Positions 39,147 through 53,897 of a DNA stretch of 64,000 nt are shown here, one piece after another (position 1 is the stretch's first letter; each line of letters begins with the position of its first letter). The DNA lies in assembly GCA_010015585.1 (NCBI GenBank), contig ML975150.1. The stretch is one strand, 5' to 3'. The position numbers and the translations under genes are program-made. Source of the DNA: Eremomyces bilateralis CBS 781.70 (Eukaryota). The notes under the pieces are model-generated. The model worked only from the letters and a program-made list of their open reading frames with translations, made no database searches and had not been told where the DNA came from.

Positions 39147-39816
39147 TTAGGACGACTTCCCATGGATGAACACTCTCTCTTCCAGGGGTTTGAACGTCTT
39201 CTCCCCAGGTTCGCCCGCCCGTCCACCAAAAACGAGCTGTGCCTTCATCATCCAGTCCGTCGGAATATTCCATTCCTGCTTCGCACGCGCGTCGACGATC
39301 GGGTTATAGTGCTGGAGATTGCAACCCAATCCCTCCTGCTCCAATGCGGTCCATAACACGTATTGGTGCATGGCGTTGGTATGCTCGCTCCACTGCGTGA
39401 ACTTATCCGCGTACATGGCAAACTTCGTCTCGAACTCGTGGATGACGGATGCGTCTTCGAAGAAGAGGATCTGGAAGTGCGTTAGCCCGTGCTTCATTGC
39501 TGGATATGAGGGGATGATGTACCGATCCGCATCCGCCTTGGAAGCCGTTCAATCTCGCTTCAGACCCTTTCCATGCCTCGGGAGTTGGCACATGGGGTTT
39601 CACGACCTCCTTGACAAGCTCCCAGAATTTCTCATGCTCTTTGCCGAGTAGGACGACTAATCGCGTGCTCTGGGAATTGAAGCTGCTAGGGATGTGGAGA
39701 ACGGCGTGATGGACGATCTCTTCGATCCGTGAATCGGGGATGGGGGATTTCTTGTTGAGCCCATAGATGGTGCGGCGGGCCTTGACGGCCTCGAGGAACG
39801 TGTCCGAGTTACCCAT
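39147..39816 (-). CDS. Nitroreductase family protein (Hbn1/Frm2-like)
   Basis: RRTIYGL, PSSFNSQSTR, WTALEQEGLGCNLQHYNP, AQLVFG; one intron near 39473-39520. Confidence 0.9.
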
Positions 39817-40486
39817 CTTGGTGAAAGTGATCGAGAAAGCTCGAGGACGGGAGAAGATCTTCGGACTCGGAGTGTATGGTACTTTGGGAACTGATGATCG
39901 GATAGAGACTCAGAGAATTGAAGGAGATGCCAATGACTTTACAGACAACAGACATCCGGCTCCACTAACCGCAGTATGCCGATATGACATGACAGAAGCA
40001 ATGGAAATTTAAGAAGCTGGTAGACTACCGGTTGAGAGTCCGATAGACGAGGTCATGCTAAAGTACTAACTTAACTAGTAAACTTACCTTAGCGGAGGGA
40101 ACAGGGGCATAGCACCAGTGTCGATACCGTGGTAGCACCGTAGTGTCGTTTCCCTGTATAGATCATCCACACGGAGTGGTTTTAGTGTCGTTCGTCACTC
40201 GTGTTAGTAGGAGTTACGGAGATCCTGGACATTATGGAGTATATATGCCGCAGTGTCAAGTTTTGACACCATGTCCTCGAAGACCTGTATCGTGCGAAGT
40301 TCACGTGCTAGTCGTCGTACGGTGTCAAATTCCTCGTCGTGTCAAGTGGCGGTCCGTGTCAAACGGTCCGCCGTGTCAATCTCTCTTCGGTATCAGGGAC
40401 GTCCCGTGTCTGCCTCATTCTCCGTATAGAGATCACATGACCTTGAAATTGCTCAATTCACCAGCTGTTACGGTTATTGTCTATAT

Positions 40487-43400
40487 CTAGGCTCCACTAT
40501 GTAGCCTCCATAGTAATCATCATCTTCTTCGTCTACTACTGTCGCCAATTGCAACACCAGCTAGCTCCTATCCACCGATCCACCTGCCCACGCCGCCAGA
40601 ATATCCCGTCGTCCATCACCGAATCGATCTAATCCTGCAACCTGTGTCCACCGCCTTGGGTGCGATGTAATGTTGATACTAGAGTCGTCTGGTCGGGCTG
40701 CAAGAAGGGAGCGTTGGTTTGAGACTAAGTGATGGGGATAGAACAAGATACCTGCACAGGTATCGATCGGTTCGGGGGAGCAGCGCTGTGATATGGAGCG
40801 ATCAGCTTGGGAATACTAGAAACGGGTACGGTGCTTACTTGTAGTGATTGTTTCGGTTAACTACCATAGAGCTGTGATGAGGGAGCGATCAGCTTAAGAG
40901 ATATAATAGAAGATGGGGACACTAACTCGTATGGACTGATTGACAGTAGGAACTATATTCGTGGAACGATCGGTTTAGTTAGTACCGGTATGATAATATG
41001 GGGAGGGAATAATTACATGTATCGTACCTCTTGGGAGTTATTAGAGCCATAGCAGTGCCTTCTTAACCCAGATATACTCGTCCGTCTCTTTCGAATTCGA
41101 TAAGGTGACGAATCTATTATCATCCTTCTTGATTAGAACAAAGTAGAGCTGATCCGTCGATGACAGGGAGGCCAAGGATAAACGGAGCCATTGCCTCGTT
41201 TTGACCATCTTCTGAAGGAACTATGCGCACCCGGCGGTAACCTATACCGAGTCGGTCGTCGACGATAGCTGTATCCGGGTTCGCACAGGGACCACCGATA
41301 ACGAAGAGACGCCGGACGCGATCGAATGTATGGATAAAGATATGGTCGATGCGAATGATAGACCTGCCAGTATCGACCACTCCTCGAGTCCTAATATAGA
41401 TAAAGTCTCCCAGCTTGAACGTAAAACGCTTCTCTTGCTTGGGGTCAGTGAACGAAAGCTTCTTACACCACTGGAAAGTGCTACCATAAAACTGGACAAT
41501 GTTAGGCAGGCCGTAGTCTGCGTAAGCGGTGATAAGAGCACGTAGGAAAACTGTATCCATATGCGTCCATCGGGTTGGAAGCCCAAGTTGCTCACGGCAA
41601 TGCTTCGCCTGGATACAACCGATAGCTGTTGGTCGCTCATGGGTATCGTCGGGGCGGACGCGGCAGTCATCATCGTCGTCGTCTATAGCTCTATCAAGGG
41701 CTATTAGCTCAGATCGAGGGAGAATTGAAGTAAATAGTGTCGGGAACTGGCGAAGGAGATCCTGAGTAGCTATAGTCAAGTTGCGGTAGGCCTCAGAATC
41801 GCTATAGGCGAAGGCGTTGAGTAGTAATAGTCGAATGGTTTACCGTAAGTCCTCCTGGATAAGGGTTCTCGCTCAACCTTTTGATGGTTCGTCTGGTAGA
41901 TGACCTTCTTAAAGAAGCGATGCTTGTCCTCGCCGACGAGGACGTTACAGTTGCTCGGCATAGCATACTCTTCTGCGAGTTGAGGATAATGAAGAGCAGT
42001 ATGCATGTTCGGCTTTTTGATGTCGCTTAGATATAGCACGGCCTTTGCTGCCGATTCCTTAGGGACGTCTACCGTATGCTCGACGCCGGGCCTAGGGCCT
42101 TGAGTACGCTGAGATTGGGTCGTCCCGGTTGGCTGAGATTCCCGAGAAAGCGATCGACGACGGCGGGGATTCTCTGTCAACGAATCAGCTGCTTGTTGGA
42201 GGAGAGATTGGAGCTGATTGCGGTGTCTTGAAACAATCTCGGTCATTCGTTGACGGTCAGCTGCATCGATGTGATCTCCCATCAGAACACAATTACTCTG
42301 CGCGGCGGCTGCGTAGCAGTTGATAATCACCTTAACCGGACTCTCTCCGGTTCTCCTCAACGACGCCAAGAAATATGGCTAGATATGAGTCTCCCGTAAC
42401 CAACAGCGTAATAGGACTGGGATTACTAGCGACCACCGGGCATGCTCAGACAAGGAGTAGCTCTTCAAGTGGCGAAGTGGGCCTTGGACATGCGGCCAAT
42501 TCGGGGGGAAGGGGAACGATCGGAGCGTTTCGGCGTAGCTCTGGCAGCCCTTCGTCGTAAGGATCGCATCGAGGAGGAGGCTATGCATCATCCGACTAAG
42601 TCCCAGATACTCTGAGTGAGCAGGATCTCCCGGTCTTGACATGATAAGATCGAGGGCAGGGGATATCTTTATAAGGGAAGGGGCAGCCAGGTTGAGACCC
42701 CATCTTGTAGCATACCTCTCCCGTGCGGCCTGCGTAATACAGGCGTTCATAACCTCGCGCATCGCGAGGGTTTGATGATGATATCGCCCGTTTCGGAACG
42801 TATCGTAGAAGAGGTCTCCGCGGGATTCGTTGTCTATGAAGCAATTGCGACAGCCAAGCTTTGCACGCTGAGACTTCATACCTGCATTTTCCTGCTGCTG
42901 TGGCATATCACCAAGGTATGCCATAGTAAACGCACAGAGGAGGACCTTCTCCCCTCCTTGAAGGGTGACTTCTTGCCCTCGGTCAAGCCGTTTCATAAAC
43001 GGCTCGAGGGCAGAGATAACGTCGTCGAAGTTGCTGCCATGGGGACCAAGCGTAATTGGGAAGACGTTCGCTCGACGAGCTCTCTCCTTAAAGGATAGTC
43101 CCGCAGGGATGATATACATCCCCATTAACGTTCGGTACGTTGTCCGGTATAGACCAAAGCCGTCAATGAATATATTTAGGGCGATTGAGACGGTACGCCC
43201 GACAGATGATACTCTGTATCAAATCCAGTAAGGTGGTCGCCTCCAAATTCGGCCAACTCTAGCTTGCCACGGAGGGGATTGCTAAGGCAGAGCGGAGTAA
43301 CAGTCGGTTGATAGATCTCGGAACCCTGATCGTCGTAGATACGCCGGATGAGGAGGCTCGGTCGAATTGTTAAAAGGCGAATACTTTCCCCTTCCCAGAT

Positions 43401-44719
43401 CGATCATCTCCAAAGTTGTAGTCTAGCTGGACGTCTGGGATATAGGAAATGATCTGACACTCGGAGACAAAGTAGTAGAAGTTCCATGAGAGGAGCCCCT
43501 CATAATCAAGGACCGGAGGATCTAGCTGTACCGTAATATCGGATTTCAAGAGCACTAGCTCGATCTCAATCACGATATGGCCTGTCTGACCGGATCTGAA
43601 ATCCCGTCCAACGCCGTAGACCCGGCCAGTATGTAGCTTCTGGTTCTCGGCGCCCTGGGAGCAGTGGCAGGGCGCTTCACCACAAATGAAAGTGACAAAG
43701 TCGGATGGAAAAATCGGCATCCCCGACTGGTAATGCGCGAATGCCCCAGACGTCGCGCGAATCGATGATGCCCAGGCGTGAGAATGCCATAGCTCAGAGG
43801 GCTCGTCGTGATACTCCGCCATTCCAGTATGGATCTTATCCATCAAATCAGAGCTAGCAATGTTGCAGAAGAGGGAGAAAGGATTGATAAAATAGAGGTC
43901 ATCCGTAAGCTTATCCAATGCCGCGTGATGCTGCTGCTCCCGGGCAACCTTCTCGGGAACCAGTGGAACTGGCTTCCTTCGGAGGTCCATTAGCGGAAGC
44001 TGGCCACGAACCTGACGTTTCAACGTTGAGAGGCCCGTAGGTAGGCTGCGAATTGCCCGAGGTAGATCGTTGCCGGCCATAGTCAGTGCTTCGAGTAAGG
44101 CGGTATATTGTGGGCGAGAAATCCCGGCATCGATACACCAGAGTCCGATAGCAAGATGGAAACCAGACTGGAACTCCGTACGGGGGTAGTCAAAGGGAAT
44201 AGACTTATCCTCGGGGATATCGGTAGCTTTGGGATTTCCCCCTGATGTCGTAACGGGTGAGGGTGCTTCCTCGGTCTCGTTGAAGGATTGAGTCGGGATG
44301 CTTTCGTACCTAACAGACTCGACCACGTCATCGTATTGATCGGCTTGTTGGAGCTCCTGGAGGTCAAGATCGATTGGTAGAGTTGCGGTCGTGGTAGGAG
44401 TATCGTCCTCCTCGGTATCGAGACGGGATACGATATCGCGTAGGTCAACAACACTCCCGCGTTCATCCGGCTAGTTGATGTCATGAAGCTGGAGGCCACC
44501 GATATCGTTGTCGTCACTCCCACTGTCGATATTAGCCCGCTTGCTGCTGCTTTCGACTGGGTTTGGATCCTGGTTGACGGCTGCCATACGGCGGATCCTA
44601 GAACGGCGGAATTGTTGGCGGTTCTGCCCCGATATCACGACTCGTGGAGCCATGAAACCGGTATCTGAAGCACCCTGAGCGTAGCAAATCGAGTCAGGGG
44701 GGATTAGGGGTTTGAACAT
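40487..44719 (-). pseudogene. CMC (EnSpm/Plavaka-like) transposase, disrupted
   Basis: ELWHSHAW, IFIDGFG, YLGDMPQQQENAG..GCRNC, DPAHSEYLG, GEDKHRFFK; stop at about 42380 and frameshifts near 43200 and 41865; ends approximate. Confidence 0.7.
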
Positions 44720-45321
44720 AAACGGAGTACTAATCCGAGAGAGAGTCCGGGAGACGATAAGACTTGAGGATAGTGGGTAGAAGGAAAATAGACTGAGTGA
44801 GTGCGCTTGAAAACGAGTAGGCGCCTACCCATGTGACTTCGATGGAGGAGTAAGACAGACTCGTATCAACCGTACGGTACGCTTCTATCACCTTGCCTCG
44901 ATTTCTCGCTCTTCCTCCCTCCCTCTCTCTTCTCCTCCTTCTTTACGCGATAACATCATCACCGTTTGTCCGTTTGTTCCTCTCTGGATCTAGGACATCA
45001 AGATCGGTCTCATCGGTTCAAAACCAGCACGGCAGTGCTCAGCTTCAACGCGAATTTCCCCGCAGAAAATGGCCACCCCGAGAGGGGGTCGTGGAAGGCG
45101 GCGTAGTACGAGGGGTAGGGATGAAGTCTCTATAGAGGTAGTTAAGGGCAAGAAATTAACTGCTTGGTTCCCTCCCAGTTTTATACTAACCTAGTGGTTA
45201 TACCTAGGGTCCCCGAGGACGCGGTATTGGACCAAGTGGCCTTAGCGCTTCTACTGGTTCCGGAACTTACACTCCAACTCTCAGCGGTTCTAGGAGAGGT
45301 CAGCAGGCTCGAACCGACCCG

Positions 45322-46545
45322 ATGCCGATAGAACCTCTCCTCCGGTTTTTCGGGACTACCGATAGCGGCGATACCGCTGTCGGTAGTCCCCTTCCCGGAA
45401 GTGTGGTTCATTCGGTCAGCCTCGACGATGATACCGAGCTTCCTGCGACCCCTGAGTCTCAGGGGTCGGCCGGTACGCCTCCTGTGAAGAGCTTCCTTAT
45501 CCTGATCTCGAAGGAAACTCGGATGAAGATGCGTTCCCGCCTCATCGATGGTGAGCGACTCGACCACGTCACCCGGGCTTCAGAGGCCGTAAGTGGATTC
45601 GTTCCGAAGGAGGAACTCAGCGAGTATATCCGTCGCCTCGACCGCGTCATCCGCTGGAATACCTTCTTGACGCACAGTAACATCAATGCCTATAACATGA
45701 TCGACTTCGTTACCGACGGAAAGGTTGCTGTAGATGCCTCCGAGTTTTGGATCCTTCGTACAAAGATCCTCGACAATGTCCGCACCTATAAGAACAAGAT
45801 GCTGGCACGCTTCGAGGTAGGCTTACTCTATTCTACTAGTCTAGATACTAACATTACCGTGAGATCCATATCAAGAGCCTTATCGAGATCGAACCCTGGA
45901 TCAAGAACATGAACGAGGATGGTCTCCGCAAGCGTCTAGAATCGAAGTTCAACGCCCAGAACTTCCTGTTCGTCTGGTACTACATGAAGGACTACATAGA
46001 CGTCGACAACTCTGCCCCTCTTGGGAAATGGTTTATGAAGAGTATATTACTTCCTAAAACCTCGCTTTCCCGCGACTTAGACTCACCAGTGTTGCTTCTA
46101 GATATGTACGTCAATATGGGCGTGTACGTCAAGTCCTGGATGGACGAGAACGAGAGTAAGGATATCCGGGAGCGGCTTCTTCAAGCCTATGACCTATGGG
46201 CCCTCAACGAAGCGTTCGATGACGTCGATAAGGGCGACTTTATGGAGTTGTCTCAGAAGTTCCGCAATGAGCGTAAGAAGAAGAAACGCGACTTTGCCAC
46301 TATCAACAAAAATGTTCATCGTTATAGGCGATCGTCCTGCGAAACAGTCTCCGCTTCGTTCTCGCCATGATGGAGATTCTGAGCCGGAGCAGGCCGCGAG
46401 CCTGACGTCGCGTAGTGGTGAGGACCCATTCGGTGACGACGGCATCAACCGGGCTAGCGGTACGGGAGATGGCGATACCGAGTCCCAGTTTGGTGGGGAT
46501 GCCACTCAGGACGATGAATACGAGTTCGCTTATCGAACCATTTGA
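45322..46545 (+). CDS. Second, divergently oriented ORF of the transposon, unknown function, multi-exon
   Basis: Consecutive coding-like ORFs 45322-45912, 45909-46370 and 46189-46545 inside the TIRs; basic RNERKKKKR segment and acidic tail. Confidence 0.55.
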
Positions 46546-47119
46546 CCGCCGACTCATCGCCCCTAAGGTGGGATAGTGCCGCCGAAGGTGAGGTCGTGTG
46601 TAAGGTCGGTCGTGGGTGAGGTCGTGGGTTAGGAACCGCCTGTTAACTAAGAAACGTCAGTCAGGTAGTCGAAAGCAGTATACCAAGCAACGCATGTGGA
46701 TTCCGTGACCGGTTTGATGCTATGGCCTATGGGAGATGCAGATGCAGGGAAATGTGGGGTGGGAAACGGGGGGGGAAATCCCCTGTGGGGGGCCCTGTGG
46801 GAGCCCCTCCCCTCCAGATACCGTGTCGACACAGTGTCAGAAACCTTCCCGTGTCAACAGTATTCCCGTGTCGATAATGCACCGTGTCGTAGAACATGAA
46901 CAGTGTATCTCCTGCGGCATTAGGAGTATCCGTGACGATAGAGTATTAAGATGGGTACGCTTCGCGGACCAATTACGAGAAGATATAGCTACTAAGAAAT
47001 ATATTGGCACTGTATCACCACAGCGGAACCCCCCACATGGAGTCGACACAGTTGCATTCCCCCTGTTCCCTCCGCTAAGGTAGTTACTACTAACTGCTAA
47101 GTAACCAAGTTACCAATAA

Positions 47120-48388
47120 CCAAGCCAAAAGTCTGCGCACAGACCCCTTACTTTGACAATCAATAACTTTACCAAAATGAGGTCTTTTGGCACAAAAATA
47201 AGTGATAATCGAGGGCCTAATAAGGAGCTATCAGTTGCTCAAAGAGCTGGGGTTGTTCAGGCTGCTGAAGATGGGAAACCAAAGACTGAAATCGCGCGCA
47301 ACTTTCGCGTCTCTCGAAGCGCGGTGTATGGGACCCTAGAGAGGTGGGAAGAACACCAAACCACCGTATCTTTACCCCGTAAAGGGAGTCCCCATAAGCT
47401 ATCACGCTCTGGCGAACGGCATATCGTTCAAATCGCGCGTCGATTTCCTGAAATGGAATATGGAGAGCTCCTCGCAGGTATTTCGTACCTCCGCGTTTCT
47501 AGGAAGACTATCTACCGAATCCTTAAGAAATATCACCTTACGAAATGGCGAGCGAAGAAGGGACCTTACCTAAAACCCTACCACGTAAAAGGCCGCCTCC
47601 GATTTGCCCACGAATTCCTTGAATTCGACTTCTTCAGGACCCACTCTACAGACGAGTGCTCGTATGAGAAGGGGACAGGCGGTAAGCAGGTATGGGTATG
47701 GCGCCTGTACCACGAAGCGTATGAGTCGCGAATGGTAGAGCCAAAGACGTCAGGGAAGGTGATTTCGTAGATGATTTGAGGCTTAATTTCGCGTGATGGG
47801 CGATCAGATCTGGTGATTATGGACCGCGACGAAACCTCCGCAAGACAGGGCTATTCCGCAAAATCCTACATCGCTGCATTAGAGGAGAGACTCCTCTCTA
47901 CGTACGAACCCGGAAATGTTGTTATCCAGGATAATGTAAAGATCTATACGGCTAAAATTACCTAAGAATGGCTGGAGACGCACGGTATCTGGGTCACCGA
48001 TTGGCCGGCCAATTCCCCAGATATTAACCCTATCGAGCATATATGGCATCTATTGAAAACCAAGGTCCTAGAGCTCCACCCTGAATTAAAGCCGATAGGC
48101 ACCTCAGAGGAGGCACGGGAGGCTATGAATGCGGCGTTAGAGGAGGTATAGTGGGCGATCCCTTAGGAGACGATCCGAGAGCTGATCGACTCAATTCCGC
48201 GACGTCTACAGGCGGTAATCAAGGCAAAAGGGTGGCATACGAAATATTAGATATTTCCCAATTAAGAAATCAAAAAAGTAGACTGAATTTGCATTTGTAT
48301 GTGTTTTGCAGCGTATCTAAAGATACGGTGTATAGCGATTAGATTTGGTGATTTTCGGGGGTGTGTGCAGACATTTGTCTACTTAGTG
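47120..48388 (+). mobile_element. Tc1/mariner (Tc1-type DDE) transposon relic with RIP-type stops
   Basis: ORF 47177-48250 with HTH, TDECS, QDN, SPDINPIEHIW, GWHTKY; internal TAG/TGA/TAA; imperfect TIRs at 47125-47147 and 48357-48388 followed by TA. Confidence 0.9.
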
Positions 48389-48533
48389 TACTCTATGATG
48401 TTGGTCACTAGAGTAACTATACGGGATAATTAACTTACCCTAGGAGTTCCGCGACGATCAACACAAATATCAAGGCTTGTAAACATTCCTAAGTAAGAGG
48501 CGACTAACCTTCACTTACAAGCCGTGATAGTAA

Positions 48534-49496
48534 CTATTGCTTGAAAAAATCATTCATGTCAACGTCTTTATCGAACACTCCCACAGCTGCAGAAGAGTTT
48601 CTTTGTGTTGTTACATCCCTGATCCGCAGGTTGACCTTTCCGACAACACTCTCAGGTAATCCTACCAAAGCTCTCGAATCGTCGGACGTTATGATGTTGG
48701 AAATATCATGGCCTGTCCGTTTGGAGCGCACTTGTGAGAAAAGAGCAGCAGAAGCCACCTGATCAGCCTCGAAGAGGCGTGACTGTTCTTCAACTTCCTG
48801 AATGGCTAGGGTTCGCTGTGCACCACCATCTTCTTCGTCGTCTAGCCCTTCCTGTAGCCCTTGCACACGCTTTTGTGCGTCACCTTGCTGCTTCTTGGTA
48901 AGATCTATATGCTCTTGGATCTTGGCCTCGAGAGCCTGCAACTGTGCCTTCAGTTTCTTGCGATCAGTCTCCGACGTTTGTTCGGAGCGGAGTTGAACGA
49001 TTCTTTCTAGAGAGTCAGCATACATCCGCGGAAGTGATATAAGATAGCTGACCTACAATTGGGTACTTGTGACGGCAAAATGGACCGTAGTCTGGCAAGA
49101 CTGGACCTGCATTCTGAACGTCCGGAATTTTTCTCTATTCCACACGCCGACTGAAAGGCGATCTCTAAGGGAGAGTTGTGTGCCGCCGGAATGTTTCGTC
49201 CATCGCTTTAAATTGTCCGTAAATTTGGCGCATGCCTGGCCGCAGTTGTTCACGGCTTCGACGACACCGGTCTTCTCCAGATCCACTTTGGCTGCGGTAT
49301 ACATTGCTGCGTCTGAAATGATGAGATCCTCCAGGGCGGCCAACGGGCGCTGCACACCCTCTAAGTTTGAAGCAATATCTTGTACTACATCTTTAGCCTC
49401 AGCAAGATTGTCAATGAAGTTATGAAGTTGGACGATGCTGGAGATAGCAAACGTCGTAATGCCTAGAGTGCTTGCAGTAATACTAAGAGGATCCAT
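48534..49496 (-). CDS. HeLo-like domain effector with C-terminal two-repeat HET-s-like amyloid motif
   Basis: MDPLSITASTLGITTFAISSI N-terminal helix; inferred intron 49003-49056; C-terminal HDISNIITSDDSRALVG and LRIRDVTTQRNSSAAVG followed by an aromatic FF tail. Confidence 0.8.
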
Positions 49497-49911
49497 GGGT
49501 TCTGGTTCGAGGACGTGAGAATTAATGAATGGAACCCGTATGAAATCAGAAGAATCGTAATAGAAGAACGGAGATGTTTCTCTGATAGATACCTACGGAT
49601 GGATGGATTTTCGTAAGCATAAAATGGACGAGGCTGTTGAGAAAGGCGAACGGGCTGTATTTCTGTTGGGACTGAAGGCTGCTGTTCAGATGAGGTGATG
49701 CTGCACGGCTCCAACAAATCATTGTGCATGGCTGAACGCTGCCGTTAAGCGAGCCAGACGAAGCATTTAATTAGAACCGCTTCGAATTGGGAATAACAGT
49801 TTTGTTGCTGGACATCCCATGCTGTCTTGATGCATCACAAATGATAATAGTGCTGATCCTCAAAGCACTAGTTAGCAAAGGCTTGTGTTATTATCGCCAC
49901 TGTGAAGCCGT

Positions 49912-52900
49912 ATGGCGGGCAGCACTCAACACATCAGCAGCGTGTCCATCGACAACCACTCCCAGGCTGCAGTGGGTACCTTCCAAGCACCAGTGTATAT
50001 AGGGAACAAAGAAAGCGAGTATTATAGCTGTACACTAGATGACGAGGCTAATCGGTCGTCTAGATCTGAACGATGCGCTCAATTCCCTCCCTATTGCTAA
50101 GGACGCGGCGTTCGACACCTATTACCGACATGAGCCGACCTGCCTTCCCAATACCCGCGTCGATCTCCTCAAAGATATATACAACTGGGCAGATGGAGAC
50201 AATTCGCCGACCATCTTCTGGCTGAGCGGTTTGGCCGGCACCGGCAAGTCCACAATCGCGCGAACGCTGGCTGCTAAGTACTTGGACACCGGCGGTATTG
50301 CAGCTAGCTTCTTCTTCTCAAGAAATGGTGGAGAAGGTGGATATTTACGTCATGGTGAAAGATTCGTTACAAGCATTGCAGTGCAGCTGGCCAGCAATGT
50401 ACCGCCTGCAAAACAGGCCATATGCGGTGCTATTTTTGCGCAGAGTAACATCGCCAGCCGGGCTCTCCGCGAACAATGGCGGCATCTCATTCATAGGCCA
50501 CTATCGGAGCTACCAGACAGAAACTGCCAGTCTCGATATATCCTTGTCGTTGACGCGCTTGATGAGTGCGAGAACGAGAACGACATCCAGACCATTTTAC
50601 AACTATTAGCGGAGACTCGGTCCTTAGAGACGGTCCAGCTTCGAGTGTTCCTAACCAGCCGGCGTGAGATTCCGATCCGGAACAGCTTCGTCCAGATCCC
50701 CGATGATGTGTACCAGGATGCTATCCTCCACGAAATATCGTCGTCGATTGTCGATCATGATATCCGAATTTTCTTGCGGCACGAGCTCGAACAAATTGCT
50801 CGTACGCACGGTCTCCCTGTTAGTTGGCCTGGCGACCAAGTCGTTGATCAACTAGTTGGCAGTTCATGTGGGCTATTCATCTGGGCGGCAACTACATGTC
50901 TCTTTATCAACGAAGCCAGAATGTATGCTCCAGATCGCCTATCTATAATCCTCAAGGCCGACTCTGCGGATGACTCGGCAGACGGGTTGTCTTCAGATAG
51001 CTCCACGACAGATGATAAGAATGACGATCCCGTAATGGCTCCACAACAGCACCTAGACAAACTCTACATCACAGTTCTCCGGAGTTCTGTCCAGAAATAC
51101 AAGAAGCCGGAAAGAAAGAAATGTCGCAAGCTACTAGGAACAACCATGGAGACCATTGCTGTCCTATCTTCACCTCTATCTACCCACTCATTAAGCAAAC
51201 TGCTTGACACTACGCAAGAAGGAATACACCAAATACTGAACGATCTTCATTCGATCGTGGACGTTCCAAAGAATTCGACTCATCCACTGCGTTTACATCA
51301 TCCATCATTCCGCGACTTCATCCTTAACCCAAAGCGATGTGAGGATTTAAAGTTTAGAATTGACAATAAGCAAGTGCATCGGACCCTTGCCATGCAATGC
51401 ATACAGCTTATGTCCAAAACTTTTAAACAGGACGACATATGCTGTATAGGCCATCCAGGTACGCTTATAACCCAAGTTAAACACAGCCAAATAGAACAAC
51501 ATCTTCCTCCTGAGATTCAATATGCTTGCCTCCACTGGATCCAACATCTCCAGAGGGGTGGGTCACAGCTTAAAGACACCGACCAAGTACATACGTTTTT
51601 GCAGAAGAATCTCCTTCGTTGGCTTGAGGCTCTCGGATGGATGAAGAATGTTTCTAAGGGGATTCATGCCATTGTTTCTTTGGAGTCTATGGCAGCGGTA
51701 AGCCAGGGTCAAATAAGATACGAATACTTGGCTAACTTACGCTTAGTCGCATAAATGTCTACGACTATTCGAGTTTGTTCATGATATAAAGCGATTCGTT
51801 TTATATAACCGGTCAGCGATCGAGCAAGCTCCTCTCCAGACATATTGTTCTGCACTTATATTTGCGCCAGAGGCGAGTATTGTACGGATACAGTTTAAGG
51901 GCAGCATGCCCCAATGGATGCGAAGATTACCAAAGGTAGATTATGATTGGAATGCGTTGCTGCAGACGCTCGAGGGCCATTCGGCGGGGGTCCACGCCGT
52001 GGCCTTCTCGCCGGACGGCAAGACGCTGGCGTCGGCATCGAACGACAAGACGGTCAAACTGTGGAACGCCGTGTCGGGCGCACTGCTGCAGACGCTCGAG
52101 GGCCATTCGACCGGGGCGATGGCCATGGCTTTCTCACCGGACGGCAAGACGCTGGCGTCGGCATCGTGGAACGGGATGGTCAAGCTGTGGGACGCCAGGT
52201 CGGGCGCTCTGCAGCAGACGCTCGAAAGCCACTCGAGCGGAGTCATGGCCATAGCCTTCTCGCAAGACGGCAAGACGCTGGCGTCGGCATACGGGGACGG
52301 GATGGCCAAGCTATGGGACGCCGAGTCGGGTGTGCTGCAGCAGACGCTCGAGCGCTATTCAATCCCAGACATAGCTCTGGTCTTCTCATGGGACAGTAAG
52401 ACGCTAGCGTCAGCATCATGGGACGGGACGGTTAAGCTATGGGACGCCAGGTCAGGCGCGTTGCTGCAGACGCTCGAGGACCATTCGAGCCAGGTTAATA
52501 CCGTGGCCTTCTCGCGAGACGGCAAGACGCTGGCGTCGGCATATGGGGACGGGACGATCAAGCTGTGGGACGCCGGGTTGGGTACGCTGCAGCAGACGAT
52601 CGAGGGCCATTCGAGCGGAGTCCCGGCTATAGACTTCTCGCGGAACGGCAAGACGCTGGCGTCGGCATCGGCGGATATGACTATCAAGCTGTGGGACGCC
52701 AGGTCGGGGGCGCTGCAGCAGACGCTCGAGGGCCATTCAAGCCTGGTCATGGCCGTGACCTTCTCACGGGACAGTAAGACGCTGGCGTCGGCATCGGTGG
52801 ATAGGACGATCAAGCTATGGGACACTGGGTCAGGCACACTGCAGCAGACGCTCAAGCGCCATTCGAGCCCGGTTAATACCGTGGCCTTCTCGCGAGACGG

Positions 52901-53897
52901 CAAGACGCTGGTGTCGGCATACGGGAACGGGACGATCAAGCTGTGGGACGCCGGGTCGGGCGTCGTGCAGCAGACGCTCGAGTGCTATTCGAGCCCGGTT
53001 AATACCGTGGCCTTCTCGCGGGACGGCAAGATGCTGGCGTCGGCATACGGGAACGGGACGATCAAGCTGTGGGACGCCGGGTCGGGCGCCGTGCAGCAGA
53101 CGCTCGAGTGCTATTCGAGCCCGGTTAATACCGTGGCCTTCTCGCGAGACGGCAAGACGCTGGTGTCGGCATACGGGAACGGGACGATCAAGCTATGGGA
53201 CGCCGGGTCAGGCGCGCTGCAGCAGACGCTCCAGGGCCATTCGAGCGTAGTTAAGGTTATAGCCTTCTCGCCGGACGGCAAGACGCTGGCATCGGCATCG
53301 AACGACAAGACGGTCAAACTGTGGAACACCGGGTCGGGCGTGCTGCTGCAGACGCTCGAGGGCCATTCGTTCGGGGTCGTGGCCGTGGCTTTCTCACCGG
53401 ACGGCAAGACGCTGGCGTCGGCACCGTGGGACAAGACGATCAAGCTATGGGACGTTGGATCGGGCGTGCTACAATTGATACTCGAGGGCCATTCCCACCG
53501 GGTTAACGCCGTGGTCTTCTCGCGGGACAGCAAGACGCTGGCGTCTGCATCGGCCGACAGGACGGTTAAACTGTGGGACGTCGGATCGGGCGCAGTGCTA
53601 CAGACACACGATGTTGGGAATATCTGCTACGATCTCTCTTTCTCCGATAACGGCACTTCTATCCAGACGGACCGTGGATCCTGGCCTATTTTATCGCCTT
53701 TCTCTGATGGTACAGGTGTGACCAGTCCACAATATCTATTTTCTATCTTTGTTCATGACCAATGGGTAAGTAGCCATACCGAGCGGATCCTTTGGCTTCC
53801 TTCCGAGTATCGGCCAAGCGCGATTGCTGTTTATGAGGGTATTGTTGCTTTCGGTTATATATCTGGAAGAGTTATAACCATGGAACTTGCTTTGTAG
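49912..53897 (+). CDS. NACHT-WD40 NLR (NWD/HET-E-like) with short N-terminal amyloid-like motif
   Basis: CLPNTRVDLL, P-loop GLAGTGKST, Walker B VVDALDEC, HHPSFRDF, APLQTYCSALIFAP, 13 WD40 repeats; inferred introns 50015-50063 and 51698-51746. Confidence 0.92.
51957..53605 (+). repeat. Tandem 126-nt (42-aa) WD40 repeats, 13 copies, high internal conservation
   Basis: Recurrent gcagacgctcgag...ttctc...acggcaagacgctggcgtcggcat...aagctgtgggac with 126-nt period. Confidence 0.93.

Follow-up and report, generated by a model that had tools for sequence, protein, structure and literature searches.

We examined a 64-kb window, that is, the whole stretch of 64,000 nucleotides taken from contig ML975150.1 (assembly GCA_010015585.1) of Eremomyces bilateralis CBS 781.70, and in particular a 7-kb unit that occupies positions 40085 to 47082 (6998 bp with the TA found at each edge, 6994 bp without them). 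This unit carries terminal inverted repeats, clustered subterminal repeats and two divergent genes, one of which is the decayed gene of a transposase with a RAG1-like core. It is very probably a cut-and-paste DNA transposon of the CMCT clade, with complete ends, decayed genes and a transposase that belongs to a very large ascomycete family. An initial annotation of the locus had described a complete element with perfect 21-bp inverted repeats, TA on both sides, a long transposase-like gene with the motifs D(GF), GDMPQ, CxxC, DPAH and E, and a second, divergent gene. Each of these features was recovered at the positions given below, with the transposase gene on the minus strand (44653 to 41120) and the second gene on the plus strand (45069 to 46370). 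The term complete applies to the ends of the element, which are intact; it does not apply to the transposase frame, which contains two in-frame TAG stops and three frame changes.

Structure of the 7-kb element

The boundaries and the TA flanks of the element were defined from the one copy present in the window, which is organised as follows.

40085-40086, no strand: left flanking TA, either a putative target-site duplication (2 bp) or the first two bases of an inverted repeat 23 bp long
40087-40107, plus strand: left terminal inverted repeat, 21 bp, perfect, starting CCTTAG (CCTTAGCGGAGGGAACAGGGG)
40108-40420, plus strand: left subterminal region with GTGTC(G/A) motifs, including an array with a 17-bp period at 40322/40339/40356/40373
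41120-44653, minus strand: transposase pseudogene with a RAG1-like DDE (Asp-Asp-Glu) core, collinear by tblastn with intact homologues
44654-45068, no strand: spacer of 415 bp between the divergent genes
45069-46370, plus strand: gene 2, with four exons (45069-45137, 45208-45816, 45864-46041 and 46102-46370)
46489-46539, plus strand: FGGD..EYE, read in a different frame and possibly the shifted C-terminal end of gene 2 (10/17 identities, E 5.2, weak)
46817-47059, plus strand: right subterminal region, with GTGTC(G/A) at 46823, 46834, 46851, 46868 and 46884 on the plus strand and at 46827 and 47044 on the minus strand
47060-47080, minus strand: right terminal inverted repeat, 21 bp, perfect, the exact reverse complement of CCTTAGCGGAGGGAACAGGGG
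47081-47082, no strand: right flanking TA, common to the left edge of the adjoining Tc1/mariner relic

When up to three mismatches were allowed, the 21-bp sequence matched the 64-kb window at these two places only, and two matches were obtained in none of 100 shuffles. The similarity between the inverted repeats runs inward (83% to 47 nt, with an imperfect left continuation to 40131), and no outward extension was found, the score of the outer flanks being reached by 182 of 1000 shuffles. TA is present directly outside both 21-bp repeats, and the flanks do not fit other duplication lengths (TTA vs TAG, CTTA vs TAGT). The termini of the element thus read CC..GG, or TA..TA if the TA is counted in. 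A self-BLAST of 39501-48600 returned only the inverted repeat of the element itself, with no further copy within the window, and the exact 21-mer had no match in the bacterial and archaeal genome collection.

The repeat unit of the subterminal regions is the pentamer GTGTC, which appears mostly as GTGTC(G/A) and often as CCGTGTC(G/A)A; the right array also has a period of approximately 17 bp (46834/46851/46868/46884). With both strands counted, the left and right terminal 400 bp contain 10 and 7 GTGTC/GACAC sites, respectively; the 6198-bp interior has 5 and the other 57 kb of the window 76, a density of 21 sites/kb at the element ends versus ~1/kb elsewhere. Shuffling the end regions 2000 times never yielded as many as the 17 sites of the two 400-bp ends, and six or more sites were present, out of 636 sliding 400-bp segments, only in those that start at 40001-40301 and 46501-46801 and overlap the element ends. 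Clustered subterminal repeats are a classic trait of CACTA/EnSpm elements, and the GTGTC(G/A) arrays are likely protein-binding sites. Short G-rich tandem repeats with periods of 12-16 were also observed between gene 2 and the right GTGTC array, at 46592-46633 and 46747-46808.

The transposase pseudogene was delimited by tblastn of four homologues (P0002, P0003, P0005 and P0006) against the window, each of which aligned collinearly on the minus strand, over roughly 44632 to 41123. The matches fall into four frame pieces, 44632-43400, 43358-43191, 43215-41860 and 41818-41159, and because the gaps match missing residues of the query (41 nt / 14 residues), the breaks between the pieces were taken as frameshifts and not as introns. 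The two TAG stops, at 44471-44473 and 42379-42381, are both in a well-conserved context, and at the second of them the homologue has an Arg. Given the two stops and the three frameshifts, this copy cannot move itself; an intact transposase would be ~1100-1200 aa long.

To describe the conserved residues we used P0005, an intact protein of 1147 aa that is 54% identical to the window protein, for which an AlphaFold2 model was made with a 93-sequence alignment (predicted local distance difference test, pLDDT, 87.4; predicted template-modelling score, pTM, 0.87). The following motifs were located in the window copy.

43153-43170, minus strand: FIDGFG, with the putative first catalytic Asp, nearly invariant in the 93 sequences and located on a strand (model residues 433-447)
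42898-42912, minus strand: GDMPQ, with the putative second catalytic Asp, directly after the strand at model residues 514-526
42841-42855, minus strand: GCRNC, the C(2)C zinc motif, 19 residues past the second Asp
42610-42627, minus strand: DPAHSE, of the form D(2)H-x-E and nearly invariant, in the insertion that separates the catalytic Glu from the second Asp
41989-42006, minus strand: MHTALH, the H(3)H zinc motif
41917-41934, minus strand: GEDKHR, with the probable catalytic Glu, 20 residues past the second His, in a helix (model residues 853-868)
41159-41818, minus strand: C-terminal beta-rich domain, possibly BAH-like, its placement here being an interpretation of the model

The conserved layout is D...D-19-C(2)C...H(3)H-20-E, and its seven residues (D444, D528, C547, C550, H832, H836 and E856, in P0005 numbering) are each kept in at least 90% of the 93 sequences; the window copy retains all seven. 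From these motifs, we infer an RNase-H-fold DDE site composed of the D of FIDGFG, the D of GDMPQ and the E of GEDKHR. The P0005 model places D444 within a strand, D528 just past the end of one and E856 in a helix, as expected for an RNase-H fold. A long insertion would interrupt this DDE site, with C(2)C at one end and H(3)H at the other making up a C2H2 zinc module. The glutamate of DPAHSE, E629, was also considered as the catalytic residue; it was set aside in favour of E856, which is the preferred candidate because of the H(3)H-20-E spacing.

Gene 2 is interrupted by three introns of 70 nt (45138-45207), 47 nt (45817-45863) and 60 nt (46042-46101), the first two with TACTAAC branch sites. 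Its spliced product of 374 aa is, letter for letter, P0221, a 'hypothetical protein' of E. bilateralis CBS 781.70 (Dothideomycetes), and the exons are supported by homologues. The product has an Arg/Gly-rich N-terminus followed by a helical core, and it did not match any Pfam family. Its AlphaFold model, made with 8 sequences, was poor and largely helical (pLDDT 55.1, pTM 0.46), and gave no Foldseek match at E ≤ 0.001. In the ESM Atlas its neighbours are fungal hypothetical proteins, some of them with DUF6532 or DUF6698, with scores of 0.90-0.93, low counts of shared features and structure TM-scores (template-modelling scores) of at most 0.35. Only seven other homologues were found, all environmental proteins that share the C-terminal ~220 residues. 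Gene 2 is far rarer than the transposase and therefore may be sublineage-specific, or a passenger. The homologues carry an FGGD..EYEY tail beyond the point where P0221 ends (46370); the possible counterpart of this tail in another frame hints at one frameshift near 46300-46330, and the annotated C-terminus of gene 2 may result from a frameshift. It could be speculated that the product is a DNA-binding accessory protein like TnpA of EnSpm, an equivalence that is only an analogy, since nothing named that resembles gene 2 was detected. The 415-bp spacer that separates the two genes is presumed to be a shared promoter region. Exon 2 of gene 2 contains, at 45352-45390, a near-perfect palindrome whose 17-nt arms are 94% complementary and enclose a loop of 5 nt.

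The transposase family and its fold

To find relatives of the transposase, the central 480 residues of the window protein (P0001, with X at the stop) were used as a query. This search yielded 83 proteins of 841-2400 aa, with E-values from 3.5e-178 to 5.4e-43, 30 of which carry an organism name. The named genera, all of them Pezizomycotina (ascomycetes), include Flavoplaca, Chaenotheca, Trichoderma, Thermomyces, Colletotrichum and Xylaria, as well as Coccidioides, Chaetomium, Zymoseptoria, Penicillium, Morchella and Geopyxis. Several of the named genomes encode two or three distinct paralogues (three in Xylaria longipes and three in Chaenotheca gracillima), as expected of a mobile element. A precomputed Pfam domain was present in none of the homologues, and the named ones are all labelled 'hypothetical protein' with one exception: P0039, a full-length member of 1068 aa from Chaenotheca gracillima, is recorded as 'Glutathione reductase', apparently a mis-annotation.

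The size of the family became evident when a profile of 42 members was compared with 1.84 billion representatives of 50%-identity clusters, which gave 4561 matches at E ≤ 0.001; of these, 2703 had E ≤ 1e-10 and 1088 had E ≤ 1e-30. The best 150 of the 4561 matches were all strong members of the transposase family. A protein-pattern scan of bacterial and archaeal genomes returned 52 pattern matches, none of which was confirmed. In the literature, we found no paper describing this ascomycete transposase family or CCTTAG termini.

The comparison of the P0005 model with the PDB by Foldseek gave 42 matches at E ≤ 0.001, and the best 30 of these 42 were all RAG1 core chains (best E 6.7e-06, ~530-570 aligned columns, TM-scores by target of 0.35-0.48). 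These were followed by the ProtoRAG transposase BbRAGL (E 1.4e-03) and by HzTransib (E 3.8e-03). Of the lines that bear on the superfamily, this structural one is the strongest. The only Pfam family that recurred was Plavaka (PF18759), which weakly matched 4 of the 42 members at E ≤ 0.1, all below its gathering score of 26.3 bits, and had no match in the other 38 members nor in the seven open reading frame pieces of the window. The best of these matches, in P0059 (23.2 bits, E 4.8e-05), spans from the second Asp to DP.HSE and thus includes the motif that reads DPAHSE in the window copy. Transposase_21 (PF02992) did not match any of the 42 members at E ≤ 0.1. In the ESM Atlas, the 30 nearest named clusters comprised 14 of Transposase_21 and 13 of Plavaka, with a top score of 0.93, a result that we use as a lead only. 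The transposase family is distantly related to the EnSpm/Plavaka/Transib-RAG1 group. Two other Pfam matches in the seven pieces, to Trans_reg_dom (E 0.033) and AAA (E 0.064), were weak and were judged spurious.

The same structure search also returned BAH-domain histone readers over ~150-190 columns, namely EBS (5z8n_B, E 1.8e-03), SHL (5znp_B) and AIPP3 (7cce_A, TM-score by target 0.58). These matches to the model suggest that the beta-rich domain of the transposase may be BAH-like. Pfam BAH had no match in the transposase, and our literature search found no paper combining BAH domain, transposase, fungi and DDE.

Neighbouring relic, target site and placement

Immediately to the right of the element lies a second mobile element.

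47083-48417, plus strand: degenerate Tc1/mariner-type relic of 1335 bp, outside the 7-kb transposon, with TA at 47081-47082 and 48418-48419

The relic matches the helix-turn-helix (HTH) family HTH_Tnp_Tc3_2 (E 5.5e-13) at 47120-47770, and its reading frame contains many stops. Its inverted repeats are of ~65 bp, gapped, and begin GTTACT; they align with 45 matches in 82 columns, a score reached by 3 of 1000 shuffles. The local order is TA, 7-kb element, TA, Tc1 relic, TA, which fits two successive TA-duplicating insertions into one TA, in either order. Nesting of the 7-kb element within a Tc1-type inverted repeat was also considered and rejected: the score of the left flank against the right end of the Tc1 relic was reached by 362 of 500 shuffles, and this lack of significant similarity argues that the two elements abut at a common TA and are not nested. 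Both of them sit between a gene of the nitroreductase family (39403-39909, minus strand) and fungal NLR-like genes at 48534-53897, in which PigL_N (49053-49592, minus strand), NACHT (50039-51754, plus strand) and a WD40 array (51747-53897, plus strand) were detected.

As regards placement, the passages of Kojima (2025; PMC12730594) on the CMCT clade present the layout D, D, C(2)C, H(3)H, E as clade-wide, with duplications of 2-5 bp and termini that are mostly 5'-CA..TG-3'. They also describe ESTA ('EnSpm-like with TA TSDs', TSDs being target-site duplications) as a lineage distinct from fungal EnSpm, whose transposase matched RAG1 by HHpred. The initial annotation had considered that CACTA/EnSpm elements are not TA-specific, a premise that is out of date: ESTA appeared in print in December 2025, although only for rusts and Agaricus and for elements that start CAC.... 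The CMC/EnSpm-like assignment of the initial annotation, on the other hand, is supported by three independent lines, namely the RAG1-like fold, the CMCT motif layout and the weak Plavaka and Transposase_21 leads. Going beyond the clade, a more novel reading, less likely than not, is that the element represents a CMCT lineage spread across Pezizomycotina and separate from ESTA, Plavaka and EnSpm, with a RAG1-like transposase that Pfam does not detect, TA specificity, CCTTAG ends and an added BAH-like chromatin-reader domain.

Several observations weigh against the main reading of the element as a TA-duplicating CMCT transposon. The TM-scores to RAG1 are modest (0.35-0.48), and the catalytic triad was assigned from motifs and the model. 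No Pfam transposase model was matched at its curated threshold by any of the 7 window pieces or the 42 homologues, and a profile search of PDB sequences gave no match at E ≤ 10. The termini are CC...GG, versus CA...TG in most CMCT lineages and CAC... in ESTA, and the subterminal motifs are mostly on the plus strand at both ends, so that the two arrays are not mirror images. With regard to the TA, a single copy was examined, a 2-bp match between flanks is expected by chance in ~1/16 of cases, and the right-hand TA doubles as the edge of the Tc1/mariner relic, so that a 23-bp repeat followed by a Tc1 insertion fits equally well.

Among the alternatives, the element could be an ascomycete member of ESTA and not a separate lineage. 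It resembles ESTA in its TA flanks, in its length (7 kb, against ~7-14 kb for ESTA consensus sequences) and in a large transposase with RAG1 as the best structural relative, a similarity detected by HHpred in Kojima (2025) and by Foldseek here. Nevertheless, the ESTA consensus starts that were inspected (58 of the 89 text occurrences) are all CAC(C/G/A), whereas the element starts CCTTAG; the inspected ESTA elements are all from Puccinia, Melampsora and Agaricus (A. bisporus), that is, from Basidiomycota, whereas 30 of the 30 named homologues of the window transposase are from ascomycete genera. The window element also lacks the TET/JBP gene of some ESTA families. We regard membership in ESTA as rather unlikely.

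A divergent member of Plavaka is likewise a doubtful assignment. In its favour, Plavaka (Iyer et al. 2014, as cited by Kojima 2025) is a fungal CMCT group and the only recurring Pfam family among the members, and the weak match takes in the second D together with the C(2)C and D(2)H motifs. Moreover, PlavakaA makes 2-bp duplications and does not start with CA, and a further report (PMC12581995) describes elements of the Plavaka group with 2-bp duplications and CATAC ends in the ascomycete Tuber. However, every match of the window family is under the 26.3-bit cut-off and most members lack one, the Atlas neighbours are evenly split between Transposase_21 and Plavaka, and the described termini (TGT..ACA for PlavakaA, CATCA..TGATG for PlavakaB, and CATAC) are unlike CCTTAG.

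A different alternative, which the initial annotation had already raised, concerns the same transposon with the TA as part of it, that is, a 23-bp inverted repeat (TACCTTAG...) with a duplication that is absent or invisible at this site. Since TA is palindromic, a longer repeat and a duplication would look the same at these positions, and the insertion of a Tc1-type element into the last TA of the element would yield the three TAs without any duplication by the 7-kb element. However, in the passages cited above (Kojima 2025, PMC12730594) the CMCT lineages have 2-5 bp duplications and ESTA has TA, and under a 23-bp repeat the next flanks (CT vs GT, ACT vs GTT) would lack any duplication, which is unusual for a DDE transposase. 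We consider this alternative improbable. By this precedent in the CMCT clade, we moderately favour the reading of the TA as a target-site duplication.

Finally, it is scarcely credible that the element is of Tc1/mariner type, or a composite moved by the Tc1-like transposase next to it: a TA duplication is a hallmark of Tc1/mariner elements and a Tc1-type HTH fragment is present directly to the right, but this fragment is outside the 7-kb element, the relic is bounded by TA and by inverted repeats of its own, the ends of the 7-kb element are unrelated to those repeats, and the protein encoded inside the 7-kb element is RAG1-like and not Tc1-like.

Implications and comparison with known systems

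If the element is a TA-duplicating CMCT transposon, as we favour, its transposase, perhaps together with the product of gene 2, would recognise both the terminal repeats of 21 bp and the subterminal GTGTC(G/A) clusters. DDE-catalysed cleavage would then excise the element, and its reinsertion at a TA with a 2-bp stagger would duplicate the TA. Given that the ends are perfect, an intact relative could mobilise this dead copy in trans.

EnSpm-like elements with TA flanks have already been published as ESTA. The present element is a dead copy with perfect ends, from a very large ascomycete family that lacks curated annotation. If it represents a separate lineage, thousands of ascomycete 'hypothetical proteins' would be transposases that surveys based on Transposase_21 have missed, and the BAH-like domain could steer integration. 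If real, this domain would give a RAG1-like transposase a built-in module for reading chromatin. A loose analogy is offered by RAG2, which supplies a histone-reading PHD finger to RAG1. A copy with definable ends provides a handle for a family consensus, a profile and the masking of such elements in ascomycete annotations, and it would help to place fungal RAG1-like transposases in the CMCT tree beside ESTA and Plavaka. According to the relevant passages of a survey of fungal cut-and-paste transposons (PMC5751038), CMC elements were identified through Pfam Transposase_21, and RepBase contained CMC elements only from Basidiomycota and Mucorales; a search conducted in that manner would not have found the window family. 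The same passages report Transib as absent from fungi.

Compared with CACTA/EnSpm, the window element has in common the terminal inverted repeats, the clustered subterminal repeats, the presence of two genes and the order of the catalytic motifs, and Transposase_21 clusters are among the nearest named language-model neighbours of its family. In contrast, it has no CACTA termini, its putative duplication is a 2-bp TA and not one of 3 bp (TTA vs TAG mismatch), and its transposase does not match Transposase_21. Transib, ProtoRAG and RAG1 proteins are the best structural matches of the family in the PDB, over ~530-570 columns, yet the sequence identity is of only ~9-12% and no PDB match was obtained at the sequence level. 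Transib and RAG are characterised by 5-bp duplications and CAC termini. The D-19-C(2)C and H(x)H-20-E spacings of the window family equal those of mouse RAG1 (D708, C727 and C730; H937, H942 and E962). Overall, the window element shares with known systems the features of the CMCT clade and the TA flanks, and differs from them in its CCTTAG ends, its ascomycete hosts and the lack of a match at the level of any family.

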